Shown here: positions 7,614-35,508 of the stretch, one piece after another
Numbering within the stretch: the stretch's first letter is position 1
Layout of the letters: every line of letters starts with the position of its first letter
From: Tricharina praecox
Lineage: Eukaryota
Direction of reading: 5' to 3'
NCBI RefSeq assembly: GCF_024521635.1
Contig: NW_026250438.1
Coordinates: 1 to 64,000 of the forward strand
DNA: 64,000 nt
Made by a program: the position numbers and the translations under genes
The notes under the pieces: generated by a model
The model's input: the letters and a program-made list of their open reading frames with translations, nothing else
The model's database searches: none
Told to the model about the DNA's origin: nothing

Positions 7614-8230
7614 ATGGCGAAAACCATTGCGAAAAAGAGTGGCCGCAAATCCTCGACAGCGATAAGAACAAGTATCTCCCCCCATCCCGATGGTCCGCAT
7701 TTACTGATACCGACAGGCTTATCCGGCAAAGTCGTCAAGCCTAAAAGCAACGTCCGCGGTGCGTTCCCTCCTCCGCTCCTCCCGCTCACCCACTGACTTT
7801 CCACAGTCGGCGACCCGCCTCCCTTGCCGCCCAAGCGCCGTGCGAAACCAGGCGTGAAAGCCCTTAGGGAGATCCAAAAGTTCCAGAAGACCACCGAGCT
7901 TCTGCTGCGAAAGCTGCCGTTCGCCAGGCTGGTCAAGGAGATCGCCAATGACTACACCAACGGCAAGCATCTGGGATACTCCACCGGCTTGGGGGAGCAG
8001 CTCAGGTTCCAGTCGCACGCTATTCTGGCGATGCAGGAGGCTGCGGAAGCGTTCCTGGTGCACTTATTCGAGGATACTAATCTGGTATGTCGTAGTGACC
8101 GAGGAAGGGTGCCATGAAGGGGGGCTGACGGTGAGAATAGTGCGCAATTCATGCGAAGAGGGTCACCATCATGGCGAAAGATATGCAGCTTGCGCGTCGG
8201 TTGAGGGGTGCTTGGGGTGGACTGGGATAA
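7614..8230 (+). CDS. CENH3: Centromeric histone H3 variant (CENP-A/Cse4/Cnp1 family), 155 aa
   Basis: join(7614..7671,7717..7758,7807..8084,8141..8230). Histone fold [34 protein letters not shown]...[27 protein letters not shown]. Non-H3 N-tail, Ala at the H3 Q68 position, extended loop 1, and C-terminal RGAWGGLG typical of filamentous-fungal CenH3. Confidence 0.92.
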
Positions 8231-9145
8231 ACCAGGCGAGATAGGAGATGGGTTTAGATCATTGATCTGCAAATTCGGTGTTTCTGACGGCTGCGACGTT
8301 CCGGCGAACTGGGTGATTGTGACCGAGCTTGCTCACCGGGTGTACTCTGAACTTTCTGCGATCCTTGAACCTGGAACCCTTCTCCATGACCTGCCGCTGT
8401 TCATTATCCTTCCTAAACTACTGGGACAAAGAATTGCACAGAGCCCATTTTTGACCAAAATGTCCACTTTCAACCACCGATAAAATAACCCAAACGAATC
8501 GAAAAAAAATGAGAAAATTGAGGGACCTCTATAACTTCGCCGCCAACGATATGGGAACTCCGTACGGAGTTATGAATTGTTGGCGTTGGGCAATACCATA
8601 CGGGGGAACAGTTAATGGTTGCCCAGTAGCTTTTTGTATGGGAGCCCCATACAAAATGTAATGTCACATTTCAACTCGTGCACAATACAACATCGTAGAA
8701 CCCCAATCCGTGATGAAAGTCGTCAAAGTTTTATTGATGAAGAACCTTGTGTTTCTAAACGCTTCTGTGAAAGAGGAGTTTTTTCGACCTGGTGGAGCGT
8801 AGGTTTATGTTGCTTGCAAATTGGCATAGCATTGGTGTAAAACGGGCCCTGTCGAATCCTTTTTGTCACTGTAGTTGATATCGACTCAAGATGGGGAATC
8901 TACCACCAGCCTCCTTGGCTTGTCGCATCGCAAGGACTACAATGTACCTGCCCTAGGCGAGACAGTATCCCCGGTAGGTATGATTTTGTTTTTCCGCGGC
9001 TGTCAAGAGTTCATGATTGCCACAAAGCTCAGGGCAGGATACGGCAACATTTTTTCTCCTTGATTCAGAATCCTCCGCGTGGGCCATTTTCACTTAATTG
9101 AAGGGCATTCATATCGACAGGGGAATGACGCGGTGACCTACCCAC

Positions 9146-9321: not shown

Positions 9322-9540
9322 CCACCCTCCCATCGGTTATAAGACGTGATTCGAAATTCCCGCCGCGACAACGGTGGCGGAGTCCTACGTCTCGTCCTAC
9401 GTCTCTCGGTAGTTTGTTTTCTGTGGGTAACCCCCACTTAGCGATTTCGTTCTTTCCTGCCTCCAGCCCTTGCCCCTCCTCCTCGCCGCCTCGTCGCCTG
9501 ATGCCTCCTCTGCTGAGCCCTTGCGCTCGCCTCCCCAGGC

Positions 9541-9842
9541 TCTACAAGCTCTGGACAGCGTTAGCCCAGAGCCAGAGAAGGGTGACAAACGTGCTGGAGA
9601 GGATGATGCCGTTGGTACTCACGGACCAGTCCTCGGTGCAATCCGCACTCCTTTCCTTCCTCTGCCCACGCCCCCCGCCCCCCTTGCCGCCCCCGATGCT
9701 TGAATGGGGCACCTCCCCTGAGCCGTCGTGCTCACCTCTCCAGACTCTACCAGCTCTGGACAGCGTTAGCCCAGAGCCAGAGAAGGGTGACAAACGGGCT
9801 GGAGAAGATGATGCAGGCGGTACTCACGGAGCAGTCATCGGG
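9541..9842. repeat. ~95-bp imperfect direct repeat, offset 205 bp
   Basis: AGCTCTGGACAGCGTTAGCCCAGAGCCAGAGAAGGGTGACAAACG is identical in 9541-9636 and 9746-9842. Confidence 0.9.
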
Positions 9843-10696
9843 GGCTTCCCCTACCCCTTATCATGTCTTCATCCCAGCTGCAGAGTCCTTCCTGCTCTGG
9901 TAAAAAATTTTGCCCTGCCTTTGCCCCCTCCGTCTTCCCTGGCACACACCTAGTGCTAGGTGGACAAAGAACTTACCATTCTTTGCTCCCTGACCTTAGA
10001 CGGAGTTCAGAAATCGCTGACGAAGTTCAAATCATAGGTTCACTTGTGCTGGATGATTCTGAGGTTGTTTCTGGAAGGATACGGGGGCTGGTTGCAATTT
10101 GGTGTCTTCTTCTGTTGCAGATAGTAATGGAATATTTACCCAAGCTCTCTCCCGCCCTTACGCGCTCCACAGTGTCTCGGGGCCCGCGTGTATACTCTCA
10201 CGACTAGATTCCATGATCCATTCAAGAATCGTTCCCGATCTGCCACCGGCCTTTTCCCTCCCCTCCCACATCCGTTGCTGGTTTCCCACGAGTCCGTCCG
10301 CATGCTAGTCGTGGCGCCCCACATTTTACCTCCGGCTCCCGGCGTGGATCCAGGTGGGCGGATATTGCCGAGCTCGCTACTAAAACACCGGGCGAACTGA
10401 CGGGACCGTTGACACGGGTCAGATTTAGAGCTTACCCAAGGCTAGGGCACGCGTGGGCCGCCGCAGAGATTCGTATCATACATCGACAACGGAGTCTGCG
10501 CCCACCGCGCATTGCATACTCCGGCACCCAGCTGGGTGATGCAGTCGAACTCACGAGTACTCGGTAGTACAATCGCCGGTATGCCCTTCATCAGCGGAAG
10601 AGGCCCATTGCGGGAGTGATGTTGGACTGCTGGAACCCGGCATCGGCCGGCGAGTGGATATCATCTTCGTACATACTGCGAGGCAGCACCTGGGAG

Positions 10697-11072
10697 CAGT
10701 GTTCTACATAGTCCAGTCCGTCCGTCCTGGGCCTCGGACCGGACTAGACTGTATCTCGGCAGTCCGTCCGGAAGCGGTCTTCGGACGGACGAGTCCAAAA
10801 GATTTTGAGGTCAGGACGGACTGCAGTCCAATGCCAAGGGATGGAGAAAATTGTTTTCCTTCAGTAATCGCAAAATCACGCCAAACTAAGGCAAAATAGA
10901 AAAGTGATAGAAAATATCACGTAGTAGGAACATTCCGCATTAAAATGTCACGTCATAGGGAAGAGTTTTTTTCTGCCTTAGTTTGGCGTAATCCTGCGAT
11001 CACGAGAAGGAAAACATTTTCTTCATTTCTTGGCACTGGACTGCAGTCCCGACCGGACTATGTAGAACACTG
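10697..11072. mobile_element. hAT-type MITE (376 bp)
   Basis: Perfect 18-bp TIR CAGTGTTCTACATAGTCC / GGACTATGTAGAACACTG; perfect 8-bp TSD CCTGGGAG (10689-10696 and 11073-11080); internal ~80-bp imperfect inverted repeat 10818-10899 / ~10968-11049. Confidence 0.92.
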
Positions 11073-11881
11073 CCTGGGAGAATGTTTTTGGCTTAGTCTG
11101 TAGTTCCGTGCGGTGGAGCTCTCCACTGTAGAACGAGATTTTCTCTGGCGGATTGCACTGTAATGGTAGTGGTGAAGACAGCAGCGGCGAGGGGACATCG
11201 TGTCGGTATGAAAGTGGAGGCTGAGGTTGACACGGTTTTTGATCCCGCGGAGCCCGATACTTCATGTACATAGTGTCAAGCTTTAGTCGCCTGGAGATCT
11301 CGGCACGAATTAAGGTTTAGCGGTGGAGTCTCGACAGCCGCGACGGACCGTCGACGAGTATATGGTTACGCGGCGGCGAACTTTGATTTTGATGGGCGGC
11401 GAACTTTTATTGGCGGCGAACTTTGATGGGCAGCCCCTCAGTCTTAAATAGAGGTCTTTGCCGTAGACGCTAGGTGCTTCTTTTTTCTTCTGTATCGAAT
11501 ACAATATCTCATCCCATCTACTCGAATGTTCAATTCATTGTATTCTTGCCTATGCCCGGTGGAGGGACTGCAGCTTGAGAGGTGGGCTGGGTGCTTGAAA
11601 GGCGAGTTGCAGTAGTGGCACATGACGAATGGTATGTCCTAGTAGAGCGATGCGTGGGTCTTCATGACGGTGAAGCGGGTGTGACAGCCTTATTGTCGAT
11701 CGTGATCGTTCTTGCCTATCACAGGTATAGTAGAGGCCTGAATTATCATAGCTCCTAAGCATCCCGCAATTCCGTAGAATCGCCTTTCCAAACGCATCCC
11801 CTTCTCACGTCACATATCATTCGCTATGCCATGTCGCTACATCCCGATTCCCATCAGTAGCCATGTTCTCACAGTTTCACA

Positions 11882-12387
11882 TCAAATCGCCTCATCGTCT
11901 TTCGTCGTCTCCTTCCCTCCCCACCCCTGCCACATCACCCCCTTCTTCTGCACCTCGCCATAATACCCCACCTGCACGCCTTCGTCAAGTAGCAACTGCT
12001 TATGGCTGGTCTGTCTGATCCTGAGTTCATCCGGTCTCCTTCCTGCCTTCAAGATCCGGTGGAGCGGGTTCGTACTCGACAAGACTGCATTGTCTGTGAT
12101 AGGACGTCTTAGCGGATGGGAGGGGGGGAAGGCGAAGGATAGCGGAACGGGAGGGGGGAAGCGTTACTCACTCAGCGCCCGCTCGACTATGATCTCGGGC
12201 GTTGACATAAACCTTGCCAGGGAGGTTATGGAGGTGACGCTGCCGGGAGGGATTGTCGAGAGGTGTTTGAAGACGTTCTGTATGTGCGGCAATAGTTAGC
12301 AGTGACGACCCGTGACTGTACGAGGAGGAGGAGGAGAAGGGGACGTACGCGCTGGAATTCCACGAAGTAGGCGTTGCGGGGTGCCAT
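11882..12387 (-). CDS. Alkyltransferase-like protein (MGMT/ATL fold), PLHR variant, 118 aa
   Basis: complement(join(11882..12093,12172..12277,12349..12387)); introns GTACGT..GCTAAC..CAG and GTGAGT..CAG. Protein: MAPRNAYFVEFQRNVFKHLSTIPPGSVTSITSLARFMSTPEIIVERALNNAVLSSTNPLHRILKAG...HKQLLLDEGVQV. Follows the FQ.RV...IP.G.V.TY...PCHRV...LL.EG pattern of O6-alkylguanine alkyltransferases. Confidence 0.72.
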
Positions 12388-14597
12388 GGTGAGGGTATTA
12401 ATAAGAGATGCGGGCGTAAGATGTTGGCGAGAGGAGCTGGCAGTGCAGGTACAAACAGAAAGGTTGATAACCTAAACAGAGTCATCGTGCGTCGATCGGA
12501 ACTGCCAAGAAGTCGGGGTCGACTTAGACTGGTCTGGGTTAGTCCACTCCCATACATAACGTTTGCAGGACGGCATAGAATGATCCATCCAGGAGGAGAA
12601 AGTGGTGGAAGTGGCGACTGTTCCCCGAAGGCCCGAGAAACTGGCCACTGGATGACCAGGCGCGCGGCCCTATCGACGGAGAGGAGCTCGAACTAATATA
12701 GGCGCAGGATGACAGTAGAGGCTCTACGGTATCACTCACTAGAGAGCTCATCAACGATATTCTGTATTTCTGGAGGGAAGGTAAATCTCTGTTTCTTTCA
12801 GATATGGCTCATGCAAATGATGATAAAGAGCAGGTTACTCACTTACTTTGAATGTTGATGAAATCTGATGGTGTGGGGAGAGAGTTTGTGAGAGTTATCA
12901 CGCGATTAGTCACGCTCGTGATCACATTCTTCGTTGAGTTCGGTTCGTGCAATCAACTTCATCCAGTTCTTCACGAGCCAAATCTTCTCACCACGTGAAG
13001 CAATCGATTAGACCACATTATTGAAGAAAAATAATCCATTTCGATTCCCATCAATCAATATGCCACCCGCTCATCATCCACAAATCCACCGCATTAGTTG
13101 AAGAGACAACCCTTCACAAAAAATAAAATAGACCAGCTTTCCCAGCTGAGTCTGATCTCCTCTTATCTTATCCACTTCCAAACGCAGTTCTCAAGATGGC
13201 AGACAACAAATTACCAATTCCTCGTTTTCCGCCTGATCATCGGACATACACAAACATTTTCTGCAACACGTAACATGCATTCCTTCTTCCGCCCATTTCA
13301 ACTTCTCCTCTCCTCCTCTCCTCCTCTCCTCCTCTCCTCCTCTCCTCATTATGTCCAGGTCCCGCCAGCTCCTCGGATCGCCGCCTCTGATTTTCAATCT
13401 TCATATTGTGTGACTGGAATTCGCGAGCACGAATGTTTGAGAGAAGAGGGGCGCAGACCCCAGGACGGATGCTTTTAAGGCGAGGCTCTATACGAAGCTT
13501 GAAAATCAGAGGCGGCGGCGGTTTGAGAAGATGAACGATGCCCCACTTACTCCTTCCCCAGCCTCTTCTAGTCATTCTGTGCCAGCTCCCATGCCACCAG
13601 TTCTTCGCCGGGGTTATCCTGCCCCTCCCCCACCAGCAGCCTTTGTCGACATACTCAGTGCGGTGCCGTCTGATAGGCAGTCGACGCGGGAATCGTCTTA
13701 CCCGGGTTGCGAACGACTTCCGTGCTGTGGATGAAAGGCATCGGGTCGATACGGCACGTATCACGTCCGAGCGAGAACCATAGGATATCGACTCTGGAGG
13801 TGAAGGATCCCCGGTAGGTATGTCTGAGTTGTCTATGAAGCCGCGGAGCGGCGATCCACCGAGGCAAATTCTGGGAAAGGGGAGTGGACTTTGGACAGAC
13901 CTGGTGAGACCGGCTGTTTTGGAGATGATGCTCTTTGTCTTTTGTGAGAGGACCGATGCTGTGAGTCTAACGTTTTGTTTCTGTTTGCTGTGACTTGTTT
14001 AAGTAGTCCTTGCTCGGCTTGTTTTGTTATGTTTCCTTCGTGTCCATCTTATCTTATCAATTCATCAGATCTTATCTCTCCTCTTATCTTATCCATTCAT
14101 CGGATCTTATCTGGCCCTTCTCTTATCTGGAATCTGTATGACAGACAAACGTTCCGCAAAAACAGAAGAATTGCGGTGCATCCGGGAAAAAGGAAAACGA
14201 AAGGTAACGGAAGAACAGAAAAGAACCGCAAGCCATGTCACCCAAATTACCGTATCATGGCAACCAGGAACAAAGTTTTCCCGCCGGCCCGGAAGACTGT
14301 AGCCGTCTCGGGCAACCGCAAAGAAGGACTGGACGCCAGGCTATTCACGTGCAGCCTGACCCACACTAATACTGTCTTCTCTCTCTCTTTCTGTCTTGCT
14401 CGCGATGACTGCCAGATGGTTCCGATGTTGTAAAATTGAGTCCCGTATTTGTTGTTATTTAGGTAGCTGAAGATGTAGGTAGTAAACCGAAGGAGTGACG
14501 TCACATGATGTTCTGTGGCGCTTATATCAGGTATCTGATGATGTGTGGCTGCGGTGCGCTGGAATTATCGTTACCGGGAGCAGTGCTTGCGTGCTTA

Positions 14598-14761
14598 CTG
14601 TATAGTGAAGGGGAGGGTAAAAAATACGCTTTGTGACCGTACCGATACGGAAAAAAGCGTATCGATATGGTGAAAATACGTATTTTGACCGTATTTATAC
14701 GCTATTTGACCGTCCCGAGACGCCAAAAAGCGTATTTTTTACCCTCCCCTTCACTATACAG
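14598..14761. mobile_element. Tc1/mariner-type MITE (164 bp)
   Basis: Perfect 35-bp TIR CTGTATAGTGAAGGGGAGGGTAAAAAATACGCTTT and its reverse complement; TA on both sides (14596-14597, 14762-14763). Confidence 0.9.
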
Positions 14762-15004
14762 TAGGTAGCTACATAGCAATACATTCGCAACCACTAAATG
14801 CGCCACACAGCTAGACGCAAGCGAGATAACGTTCGTCTTCTTCGGCTCAACGCTCAATGAGAAAGAAGTGAATTAGTGATAAACTAACTCTATCTGTCAC
14901 GACCACTATGGCAGGAAGAAGAAGAAGAACGAGAGCGCAGTGGAATACAGGTTGGATCGATTCCGGGGAGAGACAATTTCCCCTTCCCTCTTCTCCTCCT
15001 TCCC

Positions 15005-15646
15005 CTAAACCACAACCTTCCACTTCCGCGCAGTCATCTTCGGCAGTGTATCCGCCGGACTATACTTTCCGGAGTCCCCGTATTCGTACTCCCCCGGTGA
15101 GCAGCTATCACCAGCAGCCCAGACATGCTCGACGACGCCCTTGTTAGTGCCCTTTGGGTAGATATCAAATTTGTTGCAGAAGTGGGAGCTTCTCTCCACG
15201 CTGCCGAAGCAATCGACTACGACGCCTTCGGCTTCGAGCGTGGATGTTTGGAGGTGAGAGATGGGTGTTTTCGGCAGCAGCAGCAGTCCCGCCGTACCGC
15301 CGTGATGGACGATGCGGTAGGTGGGGAACGCGGGGTCGTATTCGAGGATCCCTGGGGCCTGTCAGTAATGCTGGGGAGTGGTGACGAAGGGGGGGACGAA
15401 CCGAGAATCGCGCCGCTGACACACTCCGGCGAGGACGACAGCGCGTCCGAGATTGCATCCGCTGTCGTGACTCTCCCGTACGGGACCTAGCTAACGCATA
15501 GCTTCACTAGCTAGATCGGAATGTTAGCATACGGCCACTGATGAGCAGAAGGCCCCAACTTCCTGGTAAGCGGTTAAGAACTTCCGTGTTGGAGCCTGCT
15601 TGCGGCGGCTAGTAGCAGCGGCTCTCTGGCGAGGCATAGCTTTCAT
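15005..15646 (-). pseudogene. Second alkyltransferase-like gene, PTYR variant, with in-frame TAG (or an alternatively spliced intact gene)
   Basis: complement(join(15005..15351,15402..15510,15560..15646)) gives ...LTAYQELVKLCVS*VPYGRVTTADAISDALSSSPECVSGAILGILEYDPAFPTYRIVHHGG...QTSTLEAEGVVVD. Intron positions and phases match the 11882-12387 paralog. TAG is at 15487-15489. Confidence 0.65.
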
Positions 15647-16341
15647 CTTAGCCGCTGGCGGCATTGTGAGTCGGAAGGTAGAGTACTAGCGATGGAGATT
15701 GTTCTATCACGCGTGTTTCCTGGTATATATAATGAAATAGGAAGAGGTGGTCGAACCCGCGCGATGTCGTCGTACTTACCGCCGTTTGTCGATTGATACC
15801 AACACAGCTTCGACTGTAAAAACTCCCCACTGCCCTACCTAAACGAATGTCCCACACACTGTGAGTGAGGGCATGAATGGTTTCATCTTGTATTCTGCAA
15901 TGCTGTTAGCCCATATCTGTAGTGTTCCATTGGTTACCTGGATTGTTTCCTTGATATTGATCGCGGTTCCCCATTTGAACTGTTCAACTTTCCGACCATT
16001 CGTCTCCTCATATCGATCGCTCTTCATCTCCGTACGGGCACCGGCCTCCAGCAACTGCGCTTTCCCGTTAGTAGCAGTCTTCCTACCATCGGGGGCGTGT
16101 GGTGCACCTGCTATAGTAGACTTACTGAAGCGCATTGCTTCTCCAGATGCTGCTATACAACATTCCGGACCAAGATGATTGAAAGAAAAAAAACCGAGCT
16201 CGGAAGATTGGAGAAAAGGAAAAATAAAATGGTATAAAGAAAAAGAAAAATTAAACGGTGTAAAGAAAAAGAAAGAAAAGAAAAGAAGAAGAAAAAAAAA
16301 AAACAGGACCCCGTCCCCGAACTCAGACGACCACCAAAGAG

Positions 16342-17508
16342 TTAGTCGTCTCCGAAGATCAACTCCGAGGACTCCAAACCCTCTGGTGGCGCATCCTCGT
16401 CCCCGAACAGGCCGTCCCAATTGGTATGGGTATCGTCGAGGGGTGACTCGACGCTCTCAATCGTGGCCGGCGCATTGCCGGACCCTGATAGAAGTGCCAA
16501 TGCGGCATCTATCTCACCGGTCGGATCCCACGGATCGTCATCCTCGGCTGGGTCCCTGTGAGATCGTTAGTGATGTGTTTACCCACGACTTAATCAGAAA
16601 TCTAAACTTACATCTCTTCCAATGCGGCGTCCAGCTCACCGATGAGAGCGTCGAAGTCATCTTCCTCTTCGGATCTGCGAGATCGTTAGTGCTGTGTTTA
16701 GCACGACTTAATCAGAACTCAGAACTTACATCTCCGCCAAAGCGGCATCCAGCTCCGCGGCCAGGTCCACCTCCGCCAACTCCTCCTCTTTCTTCTCGAC
16801 CCTACGCCGCCTCCTGTCAGGCTTCGTAGCACCGACCGACTCTTGGTCCTCGTCCTCGTCCTCCTCCTCCTCTCTTGCGCGCTTCGTCCCCTTCTTCGCC
16901 GCCGCCTTCTCCGCGTCCGACACCCCCTCCGTGTGCATCTCGGAACACTCCAACCCCCCACTCTCCCTCCACAACCAAAACCACCACATCTTCTCCGTCT
17001 CCCAGCCCGTAGGCTTGAGACCCCCCCTCCTCTCACACTCCTCCCTCTTCTCGGCCACCTCCGCGACCAACGCCGCCCTGGCATCCTTCCTCCTACCCCT
17101 CACCGGGATACCAAGGGCGACCTCGGCCCGCTTCAGCACCTCGATCAGCACTGGGACTGTCACCCCCTTCCCAGTCCCAGTCCCGTCGAGGTTACCAACC
17201 GTCCAGATGTTCCATCTAGGATCGGTAGCAGGCGGGAGCGGCGCGTATGGCTGCGGTGCAGCGGGCTGTGGCGGCGGAGACGAACCGGCCACAGACGAAC
17301 CGGCCACGGACGAACCACCAGCAACGGACGGAACGGTGGCGGGGACCTCCCAGTACCGGAGCTTCAGGGTCGTCCGGATGTGCTCCTGCGTCTGCTTGAA
17401 GCGGTACAGCTCCGCATCGGTGGGGGGTTTCGGGCCAGCGGGCTGCGAAGGCGAGGGCGGGGGACTCGGACGACGGTCGCGGCCGCGCTTGTTGGTTCTT
17501 GATGGCAT
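16342..17508 (-). CDS. Hypothetical probably nuclear protein with a SAP-like motif and acidic repeat tail
   Basis: complement(join(16342..16555,16612..16674,16730..17508)); two GTAAGT..ACTAAC..CAG introns; basic clusters (KRGRDRR, RRRRR); motif VTVPVLIEVLKR...LGIPVRGRRKD..AALV. Confidence 0.7.
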
Positions 17509-17683: not shown

Positions 17684-18945
17684 GTGGCTAGTGAGTTGTG
17701 ATCAGTGTGAATAGTAACTGTGAGTGGGTTGTGAGGACTAACCAACGTTTACGGTAGCGCGCAAACATGTTCCCTAATTGGGTAATTTTTGAAAAACTAG
17801 CTTCTTCAAACCACTTCAAACCACTAGTTCTGGTTCTCCAACAGCAGCAAAAGCTGTGACAGCTCCGTAAACGGTCTTTTGAGCCCCCGCCACTCAGCGA
17901 ACCAAGGCAAAATCCACCCCGAAGATTTACAGCTTCACGAAGCTTGGGCGGTAGACACCTCTGCACGCTATGTCCCTCGCTTTCCACCGGGTCACGTCTG
18001 TTGCGATTCTCGACGGAACTCCATCGGTTTTCACTCTATATTGATAATACGTGCCGTGCGTCTTGGGAATCCTGTATGTTCTCATACTTGCTTCTTCTTC
18101 TTCTGCTTCTGTCTGGTATGTCTAGCTGGTCGTCCGCTGTGTTTTGCGAATAAGTCAAGCAATCGAGCACACTCATATTTTCTCAACAACGTCGTCCTTG
18201 CTCATTTGCGACCACTATCTTGCAGGTAGCTATATTTCCAGGGTGAGATTTCCTATGTTATTTGTTTAGCAGGCAGCAGGGCCACATCGTGTTGGCTGGT
18301 AACGGGGTCAAGAACCCCGGCCGACCAGAGCAGGCAGCAAAGGAGTGCGACGGTTGGCCATAGTCTAGACAGACTTCATGCGAAATCAACTGAATATATA
18401 TCTCTCTCTGACCATCATCTTGGTACTGTCGCTTTGGCGCTTGCAGAGCTCTCCTTTCGCACATATCAAGATTCCCGTCTTCTTTCGCTGTATCATTTTA
18501 TCACAATATAGAGGACACTACCCTCCATCGCTGTCTCTCGCTGCCATATATTTGACATGTTGGATGCATACATCATAACGTGATGAGGCCTAGTTAACGT
18601 GTACGGTAGCGCACAAACATGTTCCCTAATTGAGTTATTTTCGAAACGCTAGCACCTTCAGTGGCTAGTGAGTTGTGATCAGAGTGATTACCACCCTTGC
18701 GCGACTGGTGGGGCCTAGCTAACGTTTACGGTAGCACGCAAACATGTTCCCTAATTGGGTAATTTCAAACCACTAGTTCTAGTTTTCGAGCAGCATAAAA
18801 CCATGGCAGTTATGACAACCGTCTTTTGAGCTCTCCTCGCTGAGTGAATCAAAGTAAAATCGACCCCCAAGGCTTTACAGCTGCACGAAGCTGAGGCCGT
18901 CGACACATCTGCACCTGATGTCACTCATTTTCCTCAGGATGACGT
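17684..18945. repeat. Diverged ~300-bp direct repeat (17684-~18000 vs 18661-~18945) plus a partial third copy at ~18585-18660
   Basis: Shared GTGGCTAGTGAGTTGTGATCAG, AACGTTTACGGTAGC.CGCAAACATGTTCCCTAATTGGGTAATTT, CAAACCACTAGTTCT, GTCTTTTGAGC and TTTACAGCT.CACGAAGCT. Confidence 0.85.
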
Positions 18946-20657
18946 CGCTTTGTCTTTTCAGAATAGCTTAGCCCAGCAGGGTACTGCTTATGTATGTCGG
19001 GTTCTTCGCCGTATAATGAATCGTCAATCCCATCCCGGCTCTAACCTTGCCGCCCCCACAGGACCACAGGGCCACACCCGGAACAACGATCTTCCACCAC
19101 TTGCATTAGCGTGCGATTGGCATCACCCATCTCGGCCCGCAACACCCGAGGCTCCGCCCGCCGCTCGTTCAGGAAAGTGGGGCATCGCGGGGCGCGCGCG
19201 ACATCCCTGGTAGCGTCACCCCCGCAAACGCGATTTCGGGGGGTTACTGCACCGATACAGACAGTGATACACGGGCACGCTGTGCTTCGCGGATGGTTCT
19301 GGAAACGGATTTATGACTTTGTGGAGAAAATATTAGTATAGGCATTAAAGGAGTGACGAAGCTGTTAGACCTTTTCGATCGGAGATGGCGGACAACAGCG
19401 GTATTAATTCAACAGAGAAATGTGTTCAATGGTCATCTCCCTGTTCGCAATCTGTGCTTCCCGTCGAGAATGCCATCTGTTCGAGGCCGGGATTGGCTTT
19501 CATCATACGAGAATTGATTCAGTGCATGGACAGTATACACGAGTGACATGACATGATTGCCCGCGAGATACCTACCTGCTTTTTCTGGCGCAGATGAGTC
19601 GTGAGATTGAAAGTTAGCTATCTAGGCGCTTGCGCTCTATCATTGATCCATATATAAGAAACTGGGCAATGTCACGGTACGATAGTTGTTCGCCAGAGAC
19701 TGCGTATAAGCAACGACACCTAAGTTCTTGATGGTTGTTCATCTAGATTCTAAATTTAGGTGGACGCGGAAAAAGGTAATGGCGTGCTAATTGCGCTGAC
19801 GCCAAGAGTATTGAGATGAGGTAGATGTACCGAGTTGATTAACTCTTAACGATTCCCCGAACATGATATCATTGATACAAACAACCCGCGCGACTTCCCA
19901 GCGGAGGCAATCAAGGGCGTAGTACCCCCGACTCCCCCCCTCCTCGACCTCTGCAGTTTGCCATTAGCGTACTCTAGCCTGGTTCTACCGGATTGTTTGT
20001 GGGCGGTACCTTCCTGCCTTCGTGGCGATGCGCCCCTGTGTATGCATCATCGCATTCGGAGATTGGTTGAAACCTTCCTGCACTCCACAAGGGAGTGTGC
20101 AGTGCGAGAAGACGTCCTTGGACCGAACCGACTCGAAACTCGGCACTGGAGAACTCGGCACTGGAGAACTCGACCTCGAGAAGAAACCTATTTCCGTGAC
20201 GGCGGGAATCGAACTTGGCTATTTCTGGATCGACGCGAGCACATCCGTGTCGACCCTCGAGCTGGCTTCTAGCAACTTGAAGTGTGACTGGAGTATCACC
20301 GACTTCTAACCAAAAGACTCTTTTGGGTCTTCAAAGAAAAAGAAGAAACTTAAGGCTACATAAAGACAAAGTGACGATCGTGATGATCGTGATGATGCCC
20401 CTCCCCTGAGCTCTCGGTTGACATACCGCAGCCAAGGTGCCAAGGTATCGTATGTAAGCGCGCATGAAGCCGGCCACCAGCGCGGATTCTGCGGCGTTTC
20501 GCCGTTTCGGGGGAAAACTGCACCGATACACCGATTAATGTTCCGTGGGGTTTTCGGTTCTAATCCGTTGGAGGGGCTATAAGGGTGTGGGTTCGTCGCC
20601 CTCAGATGATCAGCAGAGAAGAGAAGGAATCAAAAGAACAACAAAGCACAGCACAAC

Positions 20658-23324: not shown

Positions 23325-24149
23325 GACGTGGTGGTAGAACATCTACGGGATGGAATGGGACTGTGAATAATGTTGCTTTCGTACTCTCAGTGTTGGGGGC
23401 GATGGGAACTTTTGCGAATTGGCGATGCCCATATGTCCGCCCAGATGCCCAACGCTCATTGCACATCGCTTTGGTCAGGGGTGCAGATGATGGCCATCGT
23501 GACACAAGAACAGATCATAAGATATCACGCAAGCAATTTCATTTCATCTTCGGCACTCGCCGCTGCGTTATCTTCCCACCCAACCCGCAGTATTAGTTCT
23601 GAGAACATCATATTGTCCTCTGTACATAAAATCATTCAACACAAACAGTTTTGTTCCATGCAGGGATCATCTAGAGTGCCTTATAATTTCGGTTCTTCAG
23701 CTTTGCAGCGTTGAAGCTCTAACATTATTTGCTAGATGTCGCGGCATCTAGTTGCGGTCAGCCGCAATCGTAGACGTTGTCTCCCAACGAAAGAAAAACA
23801 ATTATCCCTCAGCTCCTCTGCTAGCGATCATTCACCTCAACCTTCATTCGCACCGCTATATCTTCCCTCTTCATCTCCTGGTGTGACCTTGCCGACTGCC
23901 TTGCCGGCCCGATCTACTCGGATCCGTCTTGGCAACCGTGACAGGTCCCCCCTCCGCCGAAAGCTCGGTTCCCGAGCTTAAACCGCTCACTCTTGCCATC
24001 AGGCACACCGCGCCATTATACATATATCTCATCATCATTCCTCTCTCTCCACACTCGCCATTTCTATCACCTTTGCTCCCTCCTCTCTTACTTCCCACGT
24101 CGTGATCCTTCCGCTCGCTCTCCCGTCGGATGAATCCGCATCCGTCCTC

Positions 24150-24540
24150 AGTGCGACGTTCCTCGACAGGCAGTCAACATGCGGGATGGACTTGCCCGGT
24201 TTATGGATGATGTCCATATTATCGATAAATGGCATCAAGGCCATCCTGAATTTGTCGAGTTTGAGGGAATACGACGTCGAGGCGGACGACCGGAGGATGC
24301 CTGGGATCGCGGAGTGGTCTGTGAATACACGGAATGGCGATCCGTCTAGATATTGTCGGAGACAACCTACGGCCCACGCTAGGCAAGCTATCCCCAGTTC
24401 TGAGGCCTCGTATTCAGCCTCATACGGTAATGTGGATCGTGATATGTATAGGATAGGTCTCTCCAAAATCTTCCCTGGCTTCGGCGGTGTCTCGATGGTG
24501 AATGTCTTCGCCATTGCCGCCAGATCTGCTTCGTAGTTCT
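24150..24540 (-). mobile_element. Ty3/Gypsy pol fragment (RNase HI domain)
   Basis: ERPILYISRS...EAEYEASELGIACLAWAV..LRQYLDGSPFRVFTDHSAI...IIHKPGK...VDCLSR matches the Gypsy RNase H signature; no RT or integrase nearby. Confidence 0.9.
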
Positions 24541-27011
24541 CGAAGAGATATCGCCCAAGCGAACAAGAACCATCAAAAGAAAACAGAAATGCACACGCAA
24601 AACAAGCGAGGCTAAACAAGATCGCACCTGGGTCCACACCCAGCCTCAACGTCTTGGCGACAAGTCCGTCCAAAGTCCGCAGCTAAGGATCGAAAAGTGC
24701 CTTCAAGACGTCAGTCCAGAATGTTTCCCACACTACCCGTCCGTAGTACCTATTAATCAATAGCTCGAGTAAGTTCAGTAAACGGCAACTGAGAGCTCTT
24801 GTATGTGACGCGTGGTGAGGAAGGTGTCTGTCTATTCGGCAGTACTCACTAGGTGGTTGCCAACACAGTTCCGCAACTCAAAAGCAACCCCGTAGCCACC
24901 CTGACTCTATCCTCCGACGCTGCGCCGTCTGGAGGGTAGGCGAGAAGTAGGTGGGCGAGGAATTTTCGCCGTCTGCAACAACTGCATCGTGTGGCTCCGG
25001 CAAAGCGAGGTCACTCTGGGCGGAGGCGATGTTAGCGACGCCGGTATGATATTAGCTGACACTTCCGTCTGTGGGGATCTCACCTGCTCAGTTCCGTCGT
25101 TCTTGTTCATCGACATTCTGTACCGCTTCACGGTTTTGGTTGTGGGGAATGTCGAGCTTCGAATGTGGTAGCGGGGAGGAGGGAGGTGTGAGCGAATCGA
25201 AAGAACGAGAACAAATAGAAGAAAGAGGAGAGATGTAGGGTGATGGTCGATTGGGTAGAGGATCATCGAGAAAGAATAGGATGAAGAGAAGGAGGATGTG
25301 GAGGTTGACCGTTGTGGTCTATTCGGTAGAGGATGATCGAGAAAGAAGAAGAATATGATGATGATGAGAAAATGAAGACGAAGACGAGGATGAAGTAGAA
25401 GAAGAGGACGACGACCCATCTTTAAATAAGAGTGGCCGGCGAAAACACAACGTTTGGCCGGCCGTGTCGGGCCAGCTTGACGTCGATGGCAACGGACAGA
25501 GACAACCACTTCAAAAGGCAACTGGTTGCTACAGGCTGGACACAGCCCGCAGCTGCACCCCGGGCGTGTCACGTCCCGCTCGACCGGTCATGTCCTGCTC
25601 GACCCTTCACGTCCTGCTCGACCGTTCAAGTCCTGCTCGACCGTTCAACTCCGTCGATGGATGTAGCAACAAGAGCCGCCGGCTCTCCCCCGCGACCCCT
25701 GAACAGTCCCCCGCGCAACCTATCTTCGCCTGCTTTGATTGTTCAGCTGTTCCGATCGTGGCATTGCCGTCACTCTCTTGTTCACCGCAGACAATCTTCA
25801 AGCATGTACATGCATACCATTACGCATCGGGACTCCCCGCATTGCAGCACTGTCGGAGGCGGTGTCACTGTGGCGACCGCAGTGAAGGTGGCTGGTCTAC
25901 AAGCCACAGACAGCATCAGAGCGTGAATCCTGATATGTGCTACAGTGTTGACTGCCGCCATGGGAGGAGGAGAGAGAGAGAGAGGATATGGTGGATTCGG
26001 TGGATCCGAGTGACATGTCAGCCGGACTGGCCGGATTGAGTGGCACCAACGTTGAAGGCAGCAGAGAGGAGCCATAAGATGGCTGTTCGTTCTTCATCAG
26101 CTTTCATTTTCGTCGTTCCCCTTCCAGGATTGCGTCATACAGCCGATCTACAGGCACAAGCAGTTCCACACATCTCGTCGTGTGGGGACACAGCAGAAAC
26201 GGCGGGCATGGCAGATGCACAAGCGGTGAAATTTCGCCGACCTGGCTAGACCAGATTCGGTGGGGTTAAACGTTCAGTGTGCTCTTGTTTACTTTGCCGG
26301 CGGGTCTGTCTGTCTGTCTCATCGTCCATCATCATTGTTTTCATCGTTCTTGCCACGGTCGTCTATTATCTGATTTACTGTACAGCCGTTGCTGCGATCG
26401 TTTTATTTAGTGTGCTCGTTCTTCTAGAACTTCCTGAATTCGACAGCAGGTTCTTTTCTAGTCTCGTCCTATTTCTCTCTCGTGACTTACACTTGTCCCT
26501 TTTCACCCTTTCCACTTCCAACTTCGACTAAGGGCCCCTCCGGCTCTTAGCTCTTCAATACCATGATATCCATTTCCACAACGTTAATTCCTCCAACAGT
26601 CTCGTTTCTCCAATCCAGAAACGTCACCCACAATCTGCGCACACCCGGCGGCGGCGGCGGCGGACGAGTGATCACCGTGAAGGGCGGGCTCGTCACTCGA
26701 CAGCGGACGCGGGCCGGCAATGATCCGAGTCGGCGATCACACCGTCACTCTGGATAAATGCGAGTGCTTCCCGCATGCACGAACGTTGCACGGACGTTCG
26801 GCCAGGGATAGATCCGCTGCTGAGAGCCTGAGATCAGGCTGAATATGTACTTATGTTGCAATTCTCCTTCAGCATGCAAGAAGCACATTCTATAATGCGC
26901 ATGTGCTCCAACACGGCCACTGATATTCCCCCTACCAGCCGCACAGCCCCGCAGCCTACCCCGCAGCCCACACCCCCACAGCCCACCCGTCCGCCGCCTC
27001 CATCCATCCAT

Positions 27012-30496: not shown

Positions 30497-33346
30497 TCAA
30501 GTAATACACCACCTCTGTTTCGGCGCCGTCATATTCCCGCGGAACACACGGTCCAGGGTGCGACGACTCCTACCCAGATGCGCGAAGCCCACAATCCTAC
30601 AGACGAATTCCGTTCCCTCATCCCCGCGGTCGGTGGTTCCCTCGACGGCAACCACCGCCGCATTCGGGGACTCGTCCATTCTGTGCCGGGGCTTACATAT
30701 CAACGCGAGATTCCTCTGCATCGGGATTGGCGGGGCGGATGGCGGGAACAGCTGCATCAGCAGCTGGGCGCCGGTCTGTTCCGAGAGGATGGTGGCGTTG
30801 GGCGGGAGGGTTTCGTCGTCGGCGGATGGCGGAGCTTCCTCCAGGGATTCGGGCTGCGAGAACACGAAGCCGCCCAGCTGCACGTGCAGCCCGTCCGCGT
30901 CGCACGTGCCAAAGTCCCAGCCCAGGTATGCGTTGGAGTCGCAGGATGTGATGGACGCGAGCGCCCAGCGGAACCCGGGGACGGAAAGCTTCTGCTCGTA
31001 CCGCCATAGCACGCCGTACGGGATCGAGCGCACGGTCTGGTAGAAGTGGGCCATTCGCTGCTCGCCGGTTGTGGCGGACAAGATTGCCGATAGGTCCAGC
31101 CCCATCAAAGAGGCGATGCACACGGGTACGTCTTCAATCTTGCTGGTGGATCGGTGCTCGATCGCAAAGTGGAAGGTGTAGAAGTGCGATATAACCTTCC
31201 CCTGAGAGTCTCGCATCGCGCGCACCGACGGGATGCGCTGTCCCAGTGATAACATCACCCCGGCGTCGCCGAGAAGATGCCGCTCTTCGGACGCAATATC
31301 GGGCGTCCCCTCGTCCTCGTGCGCCCCCACCATCAACTTCCGGTTCTTATCGTACTTTTGATACAAGAACGGGCCGTCAGCCATCTGGAAGTATATCCTC
31401 TCAGCAGTGTGGGCATCGCTCGCCAGCGAGGCCTCCTGCAGTGTCCACAGGCGCTTCATCCAGCCACTGCAGAGGATGCGCAATCCGACCTCGAGGAACG
31501 ACGCGGGGAACGACTCGACGATCTCCAGTTCGCGGTCCAGCACCAGCACTGCGTTCGCCTCGTGGAAGGTCTTGCCCAGCAGCTGGATGGCCGTGCGACG
31601 GTACTGTTTGGCGCTCGGCGCTACGGGAATGCACAACGTGTCTATCCACACTCCGACTGTCCGGCCGTCCGCTCGCCCGCTGGCATCGTAGATCTGGTAT
31701 AACTCGTCGACATATCCGCGCAGGCGCCGGAGCTGGCACTTGGGGAGCGCGTTGACGAAAGGGTTTCCGAGCCCATCGGCCCCTGTACCATGGGTCAGCG
31801 ACATGGTAAGACAGTGAGAGGGTGCGCCGGGGGGGGGGGGGGGGGGGGGGGGGGGCATACACACGTGGGAGAGCGCAATATAGGGATGATCGTCGCTCGC
31901 GATAACCTCGAGCTCCAGTTGATCCGTTATAAACACCTTGGGTACTCGTCCCGCGGCCAGGGCCTGCACCAGGAGCGTGGTGGGCACCTCAGTAACCTCG
32001 CAGCGGCAGTCATCATCCGTATGTCTCGTATGGTAAGTCGCCTCGTCGGTTTGGTACGCGGAGCAGACTATTTCGCCACAGCCGGAATGATCTCTGATCC
32101 TCGGCCGATCCAGTAGCGATGCGACCAGCACGTCCTCGGGTGTCATCGAGTCGAATTCACTCTCGCACCAGCCGGCCTCCCTCATCGCGTCCTCCGCGAG
32201 ATCCGAGAACTGGTCGAGCCCCTCGCTGTAGTCCATTGGCTGCAAGCACTTCCGGATCCGCTGTCTCCCCCAGCCCTCCTCCTCCATCGCCGTGAACCCA
32301 CGGATATTCACGTGCGACCGCAAGTGCAGTCCTACCAAGCGGACGACGATATCGAGTGACTGCAAGATCCGCCCTTCAGCAAACGTATACTCGAACCTCT
32401 TTGTCCGCTCCTCGTCAACGATCTCCTCCGTAAGCATCAGCCGCGCATGTCTCGCCACCTTCATGACGCTTTCCATCAGCGCCTTATCGCCGGCGCGACC
32501 CGTCCGTTTCGTCGCCTCAAACCAGCGGCTGGACAACCCGTTGAGCCCCGCCGTCGAAACCTCGTCGCCAGCCTCCGCCACGAACTCGGCGTCAACATCG
32601 ATCACAAGCCCACACAGCCTTGAAACCTCGTCCAGCACACCAAAGAACAACCACGCCTGCAGAAACGCGACCTTATCCTCCGCCCTGACGGGCTTGCCGT
32701 CGACACGCGAGAATATCGGCGGCTGCGGACTTCGTTCCTCCTCCCCCTCCTGCTCGGCCTGCTGCTGGCATCGCCGCCCAGGCGGACACAGAACGTGGCA
32801 TACCATGTCTGCCAGATGCACGTTCCAGCCGTGGCGGAGCGGGAACGTCCAGAAGTCGAGGTGGTCGTATGGCTGTGACGTGCAGAGGTAGGGCACTGTG
32901 AACGAGGCGAATTCGGGGCGTGGCGGGGTGTTCGGTGAACAGTGCGGCACGGTCAGGGGGGCGAATGAGGCATTGGGAAATGGCGGGCTGGCTGCCGAGG
33001 CGGTGGCCCCGGAGCTTTGCGGTGGGTTTCCCGGCGCAGGGGTGGTATCGGCTGGTACGGCGCCGGCGGTGGCCGGAGGCGAGTCCGTTACGGTACTCCA
33101 GCCGGACACGGACACGGCACTACCGATATCCTGCGCGGCTGGTTGCGGGTTCGACTGCTGCTCGACACTCGCCGAAGCCGGTGCCGCGACAGTCCCCAAA
33201 GCCCCATGATCGACGTCGCTCTGTTCCAGCGGCACATCCGGCAAATCCGGTTTCGCGGCCTGCGCTTCGGCATGACGGTCCTTGCGGAGCACTCGTCGCA
33301 GAAGCCGGTGGGTGTACCGGCACAGGGAGTCCCACCAGCGGGGCAT
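30497..33346 (-). CDS. HET (heterokaryon incompatibility) domain protein
   Basis: Removing intron 31783..31860 (GTATGC..GCTGAC..CAG) restores YIALSHVWADGLGN. Also WIDTLCIP, VLVLD, WMKRLWTLQE, RSTSK..D and N-terminal FLQAWLFFGVL. Start codon uncertain. Confidence 0.93.
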   Translation of the reverse strand: MPRWWDSLCRYTHRLLRRVLRKDRHAEAQAAKPDLPDVPLEQSDVDHGALGTVAAPASASVEQQSNPQPAAQDIGSAVSVSGWSTVTDSPPATAGAVPADTTPAPGNPPQSSGATASAASPPFPNASFAPLTVPHCSPNTPPRPEFASFTVPYLCTSQPYDHLDFWTFPLRHGWNVHLADMVCHVLCPPGRRCQQQAEQEGEEERSPQPPIFSRVDGKPVRAEDKVAFLQAWLFFGVLDEVSRLCGLVIDVDAEFVAEAGDEVSTAGLNGLSSRWFEATKRTGRAGDKALMESVMKVARHARLMLTEEIVDEERTKRFEYTFAEGRILQSLDIVVRLVGLHLRSHVNIRGFTAMEEEGWGRQRIRKCLQPMDYSEGLDQFSDLAEDAMREAGWCESEFDSMTPEDVLVASLLDRPRIRDHSGCGEIVCSAYQTDEATYHTRHTDDDCRCEVTEVPTTLLVQALAAGRVPKVFITDQLELEVIASDDHPYIALSHVCMPPPPPPPPPGAPSHCLTMSLTHGTGADGLGNPFVNALPKCQLRRLRGYVDELYQIYDASGRADGRTVGVWIDTLCIPVAPSAKQYRRTAIQLLGKTFHEANAVLVLDRELEIVESFPASFLEVGLRILCSGWMKRLWTLQEASLASDAHTAERIYFQMADGPFLYQKYDKNRKLMVGAHEDEGTPDIASEERHLLGDAGVMLSLGQRIPSVRAMRDSQGKVISHFYTFHFAIEHRSTSKIEDVPVCIASLMGLDLSAILSATTGEQRMAHFYQTVRSIPYGVLWRYEQKLSVPGFRWALASITSCDSNAYLGWDFGTCDADGLHVQLGGFVFSQPESLEEAPPSADDETLPPNATILSEQTGAQLLMQLFPPSAPPIPMQRNLALICKPRHRMDESPNAAVVAVEGTTDRGDEGTEFVCRIVGFAHLGRSRRTLDRVFRGNMTAPKQRWCIT

Positions 33347-35508
33347 CAGTATCTTTCCGCGGGGATAGATTCGAAACTGGAGACGCGTGGTATTATGGTT
33401 GATGGGTAGTTTGCGTGTTCGTGATGTGACGCGCTACATATGAAGAACCAGCTGGCATGCAGCCTCGGTGCCTGGATATATATCGGGCTGCATTAGCCTG
33501 TCGGAGGTCGCAGGTGCATACGCCAATGATATCGAGACTTGATGATGATAATGACTAACTACATCGGGCTTCACGGGATTGCACTCATAAACAACGTCGA
33601 AGTCAACAAAATTCTGCAGAATAAGTCCAATACCCATGAAGTCGGTCTCGTAGAGTACACTGGTACAGTTTGTGACCAGTATTCGAATTTACCTTCATAT
33701 TTGCGTGTCCAGAACCGCAAGATTGGTTGTGTTATCGTGGTGCTGCACGACTTGGTGTCCATCTCGAAATATCGAAGCGGTACCACATGACCTATCGAGA
33801 TGCCAGCGGTTTCTCCAGGACCATAGCCACTCGTTTAGTCTGCGCTTAGATCATGCGGTTTCTGTGCCGAAATCGGGTTGATTTCCGCGAGGTATCACTC
33901 GATCATTTCACTGTGGTGCTTGTCGTAATATCTGCTTAAGTCGTTTACGCGGTCATGGCGTCGGGAGCACTGGCCGCCTACCACCCGTCTTTTATGTATT
34001 CTCTCGAGGCTTCAGACTCTCACACCACAACAACAATACATTGCTTGTTCACACATTCCAACAGTGCTGCGCAAGGAAGGGTTGTGGCTCATCTATGTCT
34101 CAGCCACACCCGTCTTGCTCTATGTAGTAGCGTATCCAGCGACCATGACGCATGCGGGGCTCCCCGTGGCACGCGAATCTCCAACCACTTTTTAGACAGC
34201 ACGGCCAATCGGCCTTACATACATGATGGGAGATGTCTCGAACTGCAAATTCTGCGACCTCCCGAGTCCTACAGTATTGCCAACAACGGTAATTTGACGC
34301 GGGTTTGCTGCGAGATGGTGTACCTGCAGGCATCCGAAAACTATCACCGACGCTGGTGCTGTACGGCCGGCCGATAGCTACAGCTTCGGACGTGGTCCAT
34401 CCATGCATGCGTCCAGCTTCTCCTTCTCCTTCTCCTCTTCTCCTTCTCTACCTATTTCAAGAGAGAGACCGAGGGGGACCTGTCAGGGCGCTATGTGCTA
34501 TGGAGGGCAGACCCGATGCGTTCGTTGAAGGTTGAATTGTTTTCTATTGTTGCTTTTCTGTTCGGACTCGACGATCAACTCGACTCAGCAGGCACCACGG
34601 CGTCAGTCCTCTTCGACGCCTTGACCACAACTGGAGAACGACCAACAACAAATCCAAAACCACAGCCTTCCCCCGTGCTACACCATACCGATTGTCAACT
34701 ACGCTACTGCGCGCTCCGCCGTCACCCGCTCCCGCCGATGCCCCGTTTACGCTGGCTGCATCTGTAGCGATCACGGCTGGCACCGGACCGAGCAACCTGC
34801 TCTGCCTACATACGGCACCAGCAGCGCGAATCACGGAGTCCGGCACCGCCCACGCCGCGAAATGCCGTCGGAGAGTGTCACTCCGGGCCGGGTGTAGCGC
34901 GCCGCGTCGGTAGCCGGCCCCCAGTCCCCGGCGCTCGGGAAGACGGGAGCGGGGCGCGTCTGACGTTGCCTGCCGACTGCCTACACACCTGGAGTAAATG
35001 TGGAAGTTCGGAGGTGTGGTGTGGCCCGTTGTCGGTACGCGGGCGGAGACGAGGCGCTGGGACCACGAACAGCCTACAGGGATTTGGCTTCCGCCGCACC
35101 GGAGAAACCTGGGAAACGTCATATATGAGCCTTGATGACGAGTCCGGGATGCTTGATGCTTGATGCCAGTGGACACACGGTATGTGTACCATAGATCGAT
35201 AGAAGTGACAACTCTGCATCCCGTCGCACATCTCCCGCTGCAAAGGCCGGGTGTTTGGGATTACGATGACTGGGGACTCGGTTGACACGGTTTCGCGCTT
35301 TGCACACAGTCGAGATTGTGGTTTAAAGTTATGAAAGCATCGATTTGACGTTGCACGTGAATGTACCCTGATTCTGCTCATACATATAACCAAACAACCA
35401 GAACAGAAAGGAAAAACAAAAAACATCCCGCAGTCGCAGTGCTCAAATTCGCTCAATCCCAATCGTACAAGCGCCTATTCTCCGTCGTAACGTCGTGTGC
35501 GAGCTTAC

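Follow-up and report, generated by a model that had tools for sequence, protein, structure and literature searches.

Two classes of protein are described in the O6-alkylguanine alkyltransferase (AGT) family: the repairing AGTs and the non-repairing, base-flipping alkyltransferase-like proteins (ATLs), with a tyrosine and an arginine finger in both (PMC10779285). The sections of that source covered here give the conserved AGT machinery as the cysteine, a histidine-glutamate pair, Arg128, Tyr114, and an asparagine hinge; ATLs retain the arginine and the tyrosine, and their active-site cysteine is replaced, usually by tryptophan. Here, we consider two genes of this fold, A and B, which lie in tandem within the first 64 kb of contig C35 of the 38.4 Mb eukaryotic assembly of Tricharina praecox; this whole 64-kb stretch is referred to as the window. 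Tricharina praecox is a fire-loving cup fungus. It belongs to the Pezizales, family Pyronemataceae.

The explanation that we favor, and consider somewhat probable as a whole, is that A and B are duplicates of an AGT gene that no longer repair and that persist as scaffold-constrained, lesion-independent binding modules. The AGT scaffold has been kept after the tyrosine and the arginine finger were also lost, and the pair appears to have arisen from AGT separately from the ATLs. If functional, A and B would define an AGT-fold capability without flipping.

Gene models, fold, and active-site residues

Both genes are real and are members of the AGT/ATL fold family (PF01035). An earlier, sequence-only reading of the window had proposed two same-strand genes of three exons each, and this is borne out on the minus strand by splicing, by homology, and by introns of phases 0 and 1 at homologous positions. 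It had also called the genes hidden. The open reading frame (ORF) track does show them only as fragments, but NCBI lists a hypothetical protein for each, under consecutive accessions (A, XP_051335277.1; B, XP_051335278.1). Gene A, spliced from its three exons, is intact and gives the 118-aa NCBI protein letter for letter. The models are as follows.

12349..12387, minus strand: gene A exon 1; ATG at 12387 in CACCATGG context; 13 codons
12278..12348, minus strand: gene A intron 1; 71 nt, phase 0, GT..AG, branch GCTAAC; position as AGT intron 1
12172..12277, minus strand: gene A exon 2; 106 nt, the length of AGT exon 2; helix-turn-helix; PF01035 E 0.0078; Ile30 at the flipping-tyrosine site and Ile42 at the arginine-finger site
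12094..12171, minus strand: gene A intron 2; 78 nt, phase 1, branch GCTAAG (non-canonical); position as AGT intron 2
11882..12093, minus strand: gene A exon 3 to TGA; PLHR at 12067-12056; an Arg-rich loop replaces the GGF loop; Leu59 replaces the cysteine; His60 and Glu86 retained
15560..15664, minus strand: gene B exon 1, homology model; ATG at 15664, alternatives at 15646 and 15637
15511..15559, minus strand: gene B intron 1; 49 nt, phase 0, donor GTTGGG, branch GCTAAC, first AG 13 nt past the branch A
15402..15510, minus strand: gene B exon 2; 109 nt; helix-turn-helix; Ala52 at the tyrosine site and Glu64 at the arginine-finger site
15352..15401, minus strand: gene B intron 2; 50 nt, phase 1
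15005..15351, minus strand: gene B exon 3 to TAG; PTYR at 15325-15314 (Thr82 replaces the cysteine, Tyr83 the histidine); EGV motif

Exon 1 of gene B encodes a basic N-terminus that closes with a YQE motif, the homologue of that in AGT exon 1. Judging from a CACAATG context and a TATA-like box ∼60 nt upstream, translation of gene B probably begins at ATG 15664 rather than 15646. Exon 3 runs on into a 51-residue tail past the AGT end, with a G+C content at third codon positions (GC3) of 0.67. The terminal stop (15005-15007, minus strand) is also a TAG, with 32 open codons after it, and a stop-loss edit there is conceivable.

The gathering cut-off of PF01035 is 27 bits. Gene A exceeds it with 33.9 bits over the whole profile (1-81 of 81), whereas the annotated model of gene B, which lacks helix 1, stays under it with 18.8 bits (E 0.0015); the Pfam match anticipated for both was thus found at this threshold for gene A. 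The NCBIfam search returns a sub-threshold ogt match for gene A and no match for gene B. Predicted structures support the AGT fold. An AlphaFold2 model of gene A built on a 58-row alignment (mean predicted local distance difference test, pLDDT, 78.5) has Atl1 as its top Foldseek match (3gva, E 3.9e-5), and Atl1 and AGT structures lead the matches. The Atlas model of gene A aligns to PF01035 clusters with a TM score of 0.72 by query, and that of gene B with 0.76 by target over 85 residues (residues 45-132). Two points pull the other way: the alignment biases the first model of gene A toward the AGT fold, and the single-sequence model is poor (pLDDT 54.6; top Foldseek row 3gva, E 0.17). The synonymous-codon score of gene B exon 1 does not rise above the non-coding background.

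What has been lost and what has been kept follows a pattern. Across 35 AGTs, 27 alignment columns reach a conservation of at least 90%; gene A keeps 13 of these and gene B 14, with 11 kept by both and 11 by neither (Fisher p 0.0018). Gone from both genes are the tyrosine, the arginine finger, the hinge asparagine, the cysteine, the GGF loop, and the conserved lysine; the structural residues Val, Pro-x-Gly, Leu, Pro, Arg, Leu-x-x-Glu-Gly-Val, and Gly remain in both. At the sites of the arginine finger, the flipping tyrosine, and the asparagine hinge, gene A has Ile, Ile, and Ala, and gene B has Glu, Ala, and Leu. The recognition helix of gene A reads E41 I42 I43 V44 E45 where AGT reads P R A I G. 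The PLHR and PTYR motifs of the sequence-only reading are confirmed; gene A retains the histidine and the glutamate of the activation pair, and gene B has lost the histidine. The gene A protein has an isoelectric point of 9.6, a core with 11 Lys and Arg to 6 Asp and Glu, and the Arg-rich loop; gene B combines an acidic core (4 Lys and Arg, 8 Asp and Glu) with a basic N-terminal tail and its C-terminal extension.

The alignment therefore confirms the loss of Cys/Trp, tyrosine, and arginine finger that had been noticed by eye in both genes, and the proposal of a pseudo-enzyme is supported, with no catalytic or base-flipping residue in either. Neither predicted protein can accept an alkyl group, because the cysteine is absent. 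Nor is either likely to flip bases by the known mechanism, because the tyrosine and the arginine finger are missing.

Origin and constraint

The same genome holds an intact AGT (XP_051337056.1; contig C20, 153.0-153.5 kb; 114 aa, PCHR), which is the canonical MGMT that the earlier reading had suggested looking for, and an intact ATL (contig C16, 253.3-254.0 kb; 138 aa, PWQR, five introns). By their gene structure, A and B derive from an AGT gene and not from the ATL lineage, because they share both introns with AGT (2/2) and none with the ATL, whose introns lie elsewhere (0/5). A, B, and AGT are each interrupted in phase 0 just past the F/YQx motif and in phase 1 where the recognition helix ends, with exon 2 lengths of 106, 109, and 106 nt, respectively; the claim that A and B share both intron positions and phases holds.

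Profile scores agree. On ten-sequence profiles, A and B score 34.5 and 35.6 bits against fungal AGT versus 22.5 and 22.0 against ATL. The gap arises in exons 1-2, and exon 3 shows no clear preference (A 7.8 vs. 10.5; B 2.0 vs. 6.6). When gene B exon 2 is searched against its own genome, AGT exon 2 is the sole paralogue (45% identity over 31 residues from the C-terminal codons, E 0.3). Compared with other fungal AGTs, that of T. praecox itself lacks a single residue at two places, and the deletion before PCHR is absent from A and B.

A number of results weigh against descent from AGT. One AGT set of the profile comparison includes proteins first found by the A+B profile, which inflates its scores. 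Gene A is 27% identical to ATL and 19% to AGT (gene B is 27% identical to AGT), its best sequence matches are ATL-type, and BLASTP of gene A against AGT returned no alignment. In a FastTree protein tree (38 rows, 110 columns) A and B stand apart and unplaced on branches of 2.8 and 2.5, and the approximately unbiased test rejected none of nine placements, the best tree having A+B beside ATL. We consider that the intron evidence outweighs the tree, and we infer that the ATL likeness of gene A is a convergent loss of catalytic features. Placement in the ATL lineage is thus not sustained: introns and profile scores point to the AGT gene. The word “family” fares in between, as there are indeed two AGT-fold genes, but in one genome, with 23% mutual identity and a tree that does not settle whether they are sisters.

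Other candidate histories were tried and set aside. Repeat-induced point mutation as the cause of divergence has no signature (TpA/ApT 0.53 for A; 1.09 for B, with (CpA+TpG)/(ApC+GpT) 0.94), and for a segmental duplication with the AGT or ATL flanks there was nothing except one 86-nt match at 25.2 kb. Protein and DNA searches of the genome found no further paralogues, although more diverged copies could escape them; the genome-wide PF01035 search gave four matches, all on C20 and C16, and misses A and B themselves. One further candidate (L006) was a chance match.

It is important to separate past constraint from present use. Both genes were under selection for most of their divergence, which does not establish present function; the conclusion follows because GC3 and hidden Markov model (HMM) bits exceed all neutral simulations, and stops and frameshifts are fewer than neutral decay would bring. 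Neutral decay of an AGT coding sequence to 25-30% identity brings ∼4 stops, a probability of no stop of 0.017 (2000 runs), and a GC3 of ∼0.60, and 3-21 frameshifts would be expected at assumed indel rates of 0.02-0.1 per substitution. Observed GC3 is 0.75 for A, 0.73 for the core of B, and 0.78 for AGT, with flanks at 0.45-0.51. On the family HMM, A and B reach 49.0 and 47.6 bits, and neutral simulations at 30% identity that stayed free of stops reach no more than 29.0 (500 runs for each setting). A caution applies, in that this HMM includes proteins first found by the A+B profile and so favors A and B; an unbiased fungal profile, which was not applied to the simulations, gives ∼35 bits for each. 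Residues identical to AGT cluster at the invariant columns, both in gene A (13/26 vs. 6/75, p 1.4e-5) and in gene B (13/26 vs. 16/83, p 0.004). Third-position identity of 0.28-0.34 is near saturation, so that the ratio of nonsynonymous to synonymous substitution (dN/dS) is not estimable. Invariant-column identity, HMM bits, and GC3 together support constraint at the level of the fold, the alternative of simple decay having been named in the sequence-only reading as what would undo it.

On the explanation that we favor, a duplicate of a fungal single-domain AGT gene would have moved to the locus and become a tandem pair, and the copies would have lost repair because an intact AGT and ATL remained elsewhere. 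Selection has kept the scaffold, as the statistics show, most likely producing non-catalytic, lesion-independent binding modules. The recognition helix of gene A is bulky and acidic, so that an AGT-like entry into the minor groove is not expected; the protein, basic and possibly DNA binding, would more probably grip the DNA backbone or a partner protein through its Arg-rich loop. Gene B would have been under the same constraint until recently, or may still be, with an mRNA that is predicted to stop at codon 43; it is possibly silenced or edit-gated, and the pair is possibly lineage-restricted.

The in-frame TAG of gene B

15487..15489, minus strand: in-frame TAG, gene B codon 43; U at −1, G at +1, U at +3; candidate A-to-I site at A 15488

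The sequence-only reading had treated gene B as an intact ORF and overlooked this TAG. With the acceptor that gives the common intron position (exon 2 from 15510), gene B is in register with AGT but carries the TAG; the shared-intron argument and an intact gene B are therefore incompatible without read-through. Among seven AGs examined downstream of the branch, the only stop-free in-frame acceptor is the TAG itself, and the NCBI model runs its intron to this point, with different upstream exons and 5′ end. The ORF at 15839-16135 (minus strand) upstream of gene B is the 5′ end borrowed by that model; it has no Pfam match. A 98-aa Logan protein (P0055) matches this ORF except at one visible residue, a hint of another allele in public data.

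Four accounts of the TAG can be given. We lean toward gene B being a recent pseudogene, without quite calling this probable. By analogy with known edited genes, a sexual-stage A-to-I correction of UAG to UGG (Trp) may give a 186-aa protein in fruiting bodies only; this account is tentative, though to be taken seriously. Splicing to the TAG acceptor is unlikely: that acceptor lies 37 nt from the branch A, past four nearer AGs (the other three introns use 10-18 nt), and its use would drop eight residues of helix 1. A strain variant or an assembly error is more improbable still.

The analogy with editing begins close to home. The sections covered of the papers cited in this paragraph report 2772 A-to-I sites specific to the sexual stage, including 149 stop-loss changes, in Pyronema confluens (PMC5381528), and edited stops inside sequence misannotated as introns, a signature of puk1-like edited genes (PMC5381528). 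They also report a preference of fungal A-to-I editing for U at −1, a purine at +1 and +3, and a hairpin loop (PMC11156358), frequent derivation of corrected TAGs from non-Trp codons, and an independent origin of the Pezizomycete system (both PMC10776026). Such editing can also be harm-permitting only (PMC13431901). The NCBI entry for P. confluens stands under Pyronema omphalodes, in the Pyronemataceae, the family of T. praecox. In gene B, the codon-bias score is 0.188 in exon 2 and 0.188 in the exon 3 core, on both sides of the TAG, versus a null 99th percentile of 0.07-0.12; U at −1 and G at +1 fit the preferred context. If edited, gene B would be a premature-stop-correction (PSC) gene in a Pezizomycete, and A 15488 offers one precise site for restorative RNA editing in this group.

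Several observations count against editing. The U at +3 is not a purine. The A at 15488 is not in a hairpin loop in any of seven window sizes, its probability of being unpaired being 0.91-0.94 in the two shortest and 0.02-0.53 in the rest. The TAG column holds Gln in 19 of the 37 other aligned proteins and Trp in none (0/37). TAG accounts for 49% of the single-step nonsense changes open to gene B (35/71, weighted) and is the commonest accidental stop, so the site alone moves the odds of editing only modestly. No AGT-like gene with a sexual-stage site occurs among the P. confluens editing-table entries listed, where there is only an ordinary Atl1-like gene, and the Fusarium editing supplement has none either. 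RID-type methyltransferase genes, with no internal stop in four matches, are uninformative on editing.

Distribution, competing explanations, and known systems

Searches for relatives outside T. praecox returned no orthologue. A word search found the genes' own records only (1/1 and 1/8 candidates). The A+B profile against 1.84 billion representatives gave 20 proteins, which are the two queries, one match to the upstream ORF (P0055), 15 canonical PCHR AGTs, and two long proteins without PF01035 that we treated as chance, P0058 being the one that we aligned; the absence of an orthologue counts against the favored explanation. In metagenome contigs, one scan matches 0/152 stretches and another 6/577, all six belonging to a single unrelated protein family that has a short word in common with the query. 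Three soil metatranscriptome runs give no evidence either way: a single run covers 2/30 bins, on a histone-like contig, and A and B have no cover. The lineage restriction proposed at first sight is apparently supported by the word, profile, and metagenome searches; the evidence for a narrow range is weak because small intron-rich genes are often unannotated and because few Pezizomycete AGTs surfaced, Sphaerosporella being the only other Pezizomycete among the named AGT matches listed. In the open-access literature we found no description of A, B, or a flipping-deficient AGT class, and the part of PMC3439912 covered mentions a single AGT gene in Aspergillus fumigatus and no such copies. Even so, the label “undescribed system” goes beyond the evidence.

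The surroundings of the pair are mixed.

14596..14763, strand not assigned: element between A and B resembling a miniature inverted-repeat transposable element (MITE); 168 nt, 40-nt terminal inverted repeats, many genome copies

Its best copies, 94-96% identical, are on C1, C2, C8, C21, and C22. Also between A and B, at 13237-13998, are a 253-codon minus-strand frame (no Pfam match) and a 97-codon plus-strand proline-rich frame, together with a 28-nt inverted repeat at 13379-13517. Both flanks of the pair (9507-9841, 10696-11073, 16497-16759, and 17684-18946) hold local direct repeats and nested inverted repeats, the direct-repeat spacing units being 130, ∼120, and ∼950 nt. At 7616-8240 (plus strand), 3.6 kb from gene A, lies a gene of the histone H3 family that contains introns and has a long loop 1; we take it to be of the centromeric-H3 type, and it can serve as an anchor for synteny. 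The genome's three other H3-family matches share 57-67% identity with it. Farther along are a retroelement RNase H fragment at 24035-24682, a frame of 978 codons that weakly matches the HET domain at 30497-33433, and a tyrosinase gene at 44186-45790, all on the minus strand.

Among the competing explanations, the one that survives best is that both genes are relics, long constrained and now dispensable, gene B having taken its first nonsense hit and gene A none yet. We consider this rather unlikely. In its favor, besides the stop in gene B and the lack of orthologues, the pair sits 12-16 kb from the contig end among the MITE, the local repeats, and the RNase H fragment, gene A intron 2 has a non-canonical branch site, and gene B exon 1 shows no codon bias. 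Set against these are an intact gene A with a good start context and AGT-like GC3, a gene B with a single lesion and codon bias on both sides of it, and a conserved centromeric-H3-type neighbor, so that the region is not all junk. With one lesion and an intact gene A, the pair could have lost its function only very recently. If the genes are relics, they make a tidy example of duplicate decay in a single fungus.

A doubtful extension of the editing account would make the tandem pair sexual-stage DNA- or chromatin-binding proteins, with gene B edit-switched in fruiting bodies, as a third, independent route out of the family. A related and slightly less probable proposal has gene B as a PSC gene in apothecia and A, or A and B, acting on meiotic DNA or chromatin, possibly in a toxin-antidote or drive-like manner. 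For the latter speak the sole lesion being a UAG in the favored −1 and +1 context (PMC11156358), its concealment in an annotated intron as in puk1-like genes (PMC5381528), the common origin of such TAGs from non-Trp codons (PMC10776026), meiotic roles of Caenorhabditis elegans AGT-2 (PMC10779285), and a Neurospora spore killer under editing control, in each case as far as the source was covered. However, no editing is reported for Tricharina in the literature covered, the structural context of the TAG is equivocal, any nonsense mutation would give the same annotation pattern, the Pyronema entries listed and the Fusarium supplement offer no AGT-like edited gene, and nothing ties gene A to sex.

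The weakest proposal, that A and B recognize alkylated bases as ATLs do by a rearranged mechanism (e.g., with Arg46 or loop arginines of A as the finger) and pass lesions to nucleotide excision repair, can draw on the Pro-x-His-Arg and Glu86 of gene A, its ATL-like C-terminal half, and the ATLs at the top of the Foldseek matches, but is most improbable given that ATLs keep the tyrosine and arginine finger (PMC10779285, sections covered) that both A and B lack, that a canonical ATL and a canonical AGT are present elsewhere in the genome, and that gene B has lost the histidine and has an acidic core.

We return, then, to the favored explanation of non-repairing AGT duplicates and to how A and B compare with systems already described. 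The AGT-2 of C. elegans is likewise an additional, divergent paralogue of AGT, acting beyond routine repair (PMC10779285, as covered), and is linked to A and B here by family membership. The PSC pseudogenes of Fusarium graminearum and the stop-loss-edited genes of P. confluens resemble gene B in their single in-frame UAG within coding-like sequence, placed in an annotated intron with U at −1; gene B differs in lacking the hairpin-loop context and is known here from DNA alone.

The AGT of T. praecox shares with A and B the fold, intron positions and phases, a short helix-turn-helix turn, and the EGV motif. Unlike it, A and B are without the cysteine, tyrosine, arginine finger, asparagine hinge, GGF loop, and conserved lysine, and gene B differs further in its N- and C-terminal extensions and premature TAG. 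The ATLs (S. pombe Atl1, 3gva; V. parahaemolyticus ATL, 2kif) are alike in having a single domain and no active-site cysteine and in being the best structural match, and gene A also resembles them in its short loop and C-terminus. They keep the tyrosine and the arginine finger, however, and usually have Trp at the cysteine site. At that position A carries Leu and B Thr, and flipping residues are absent from both; the gene structure of A and B suggests a separate origin, from AGT.

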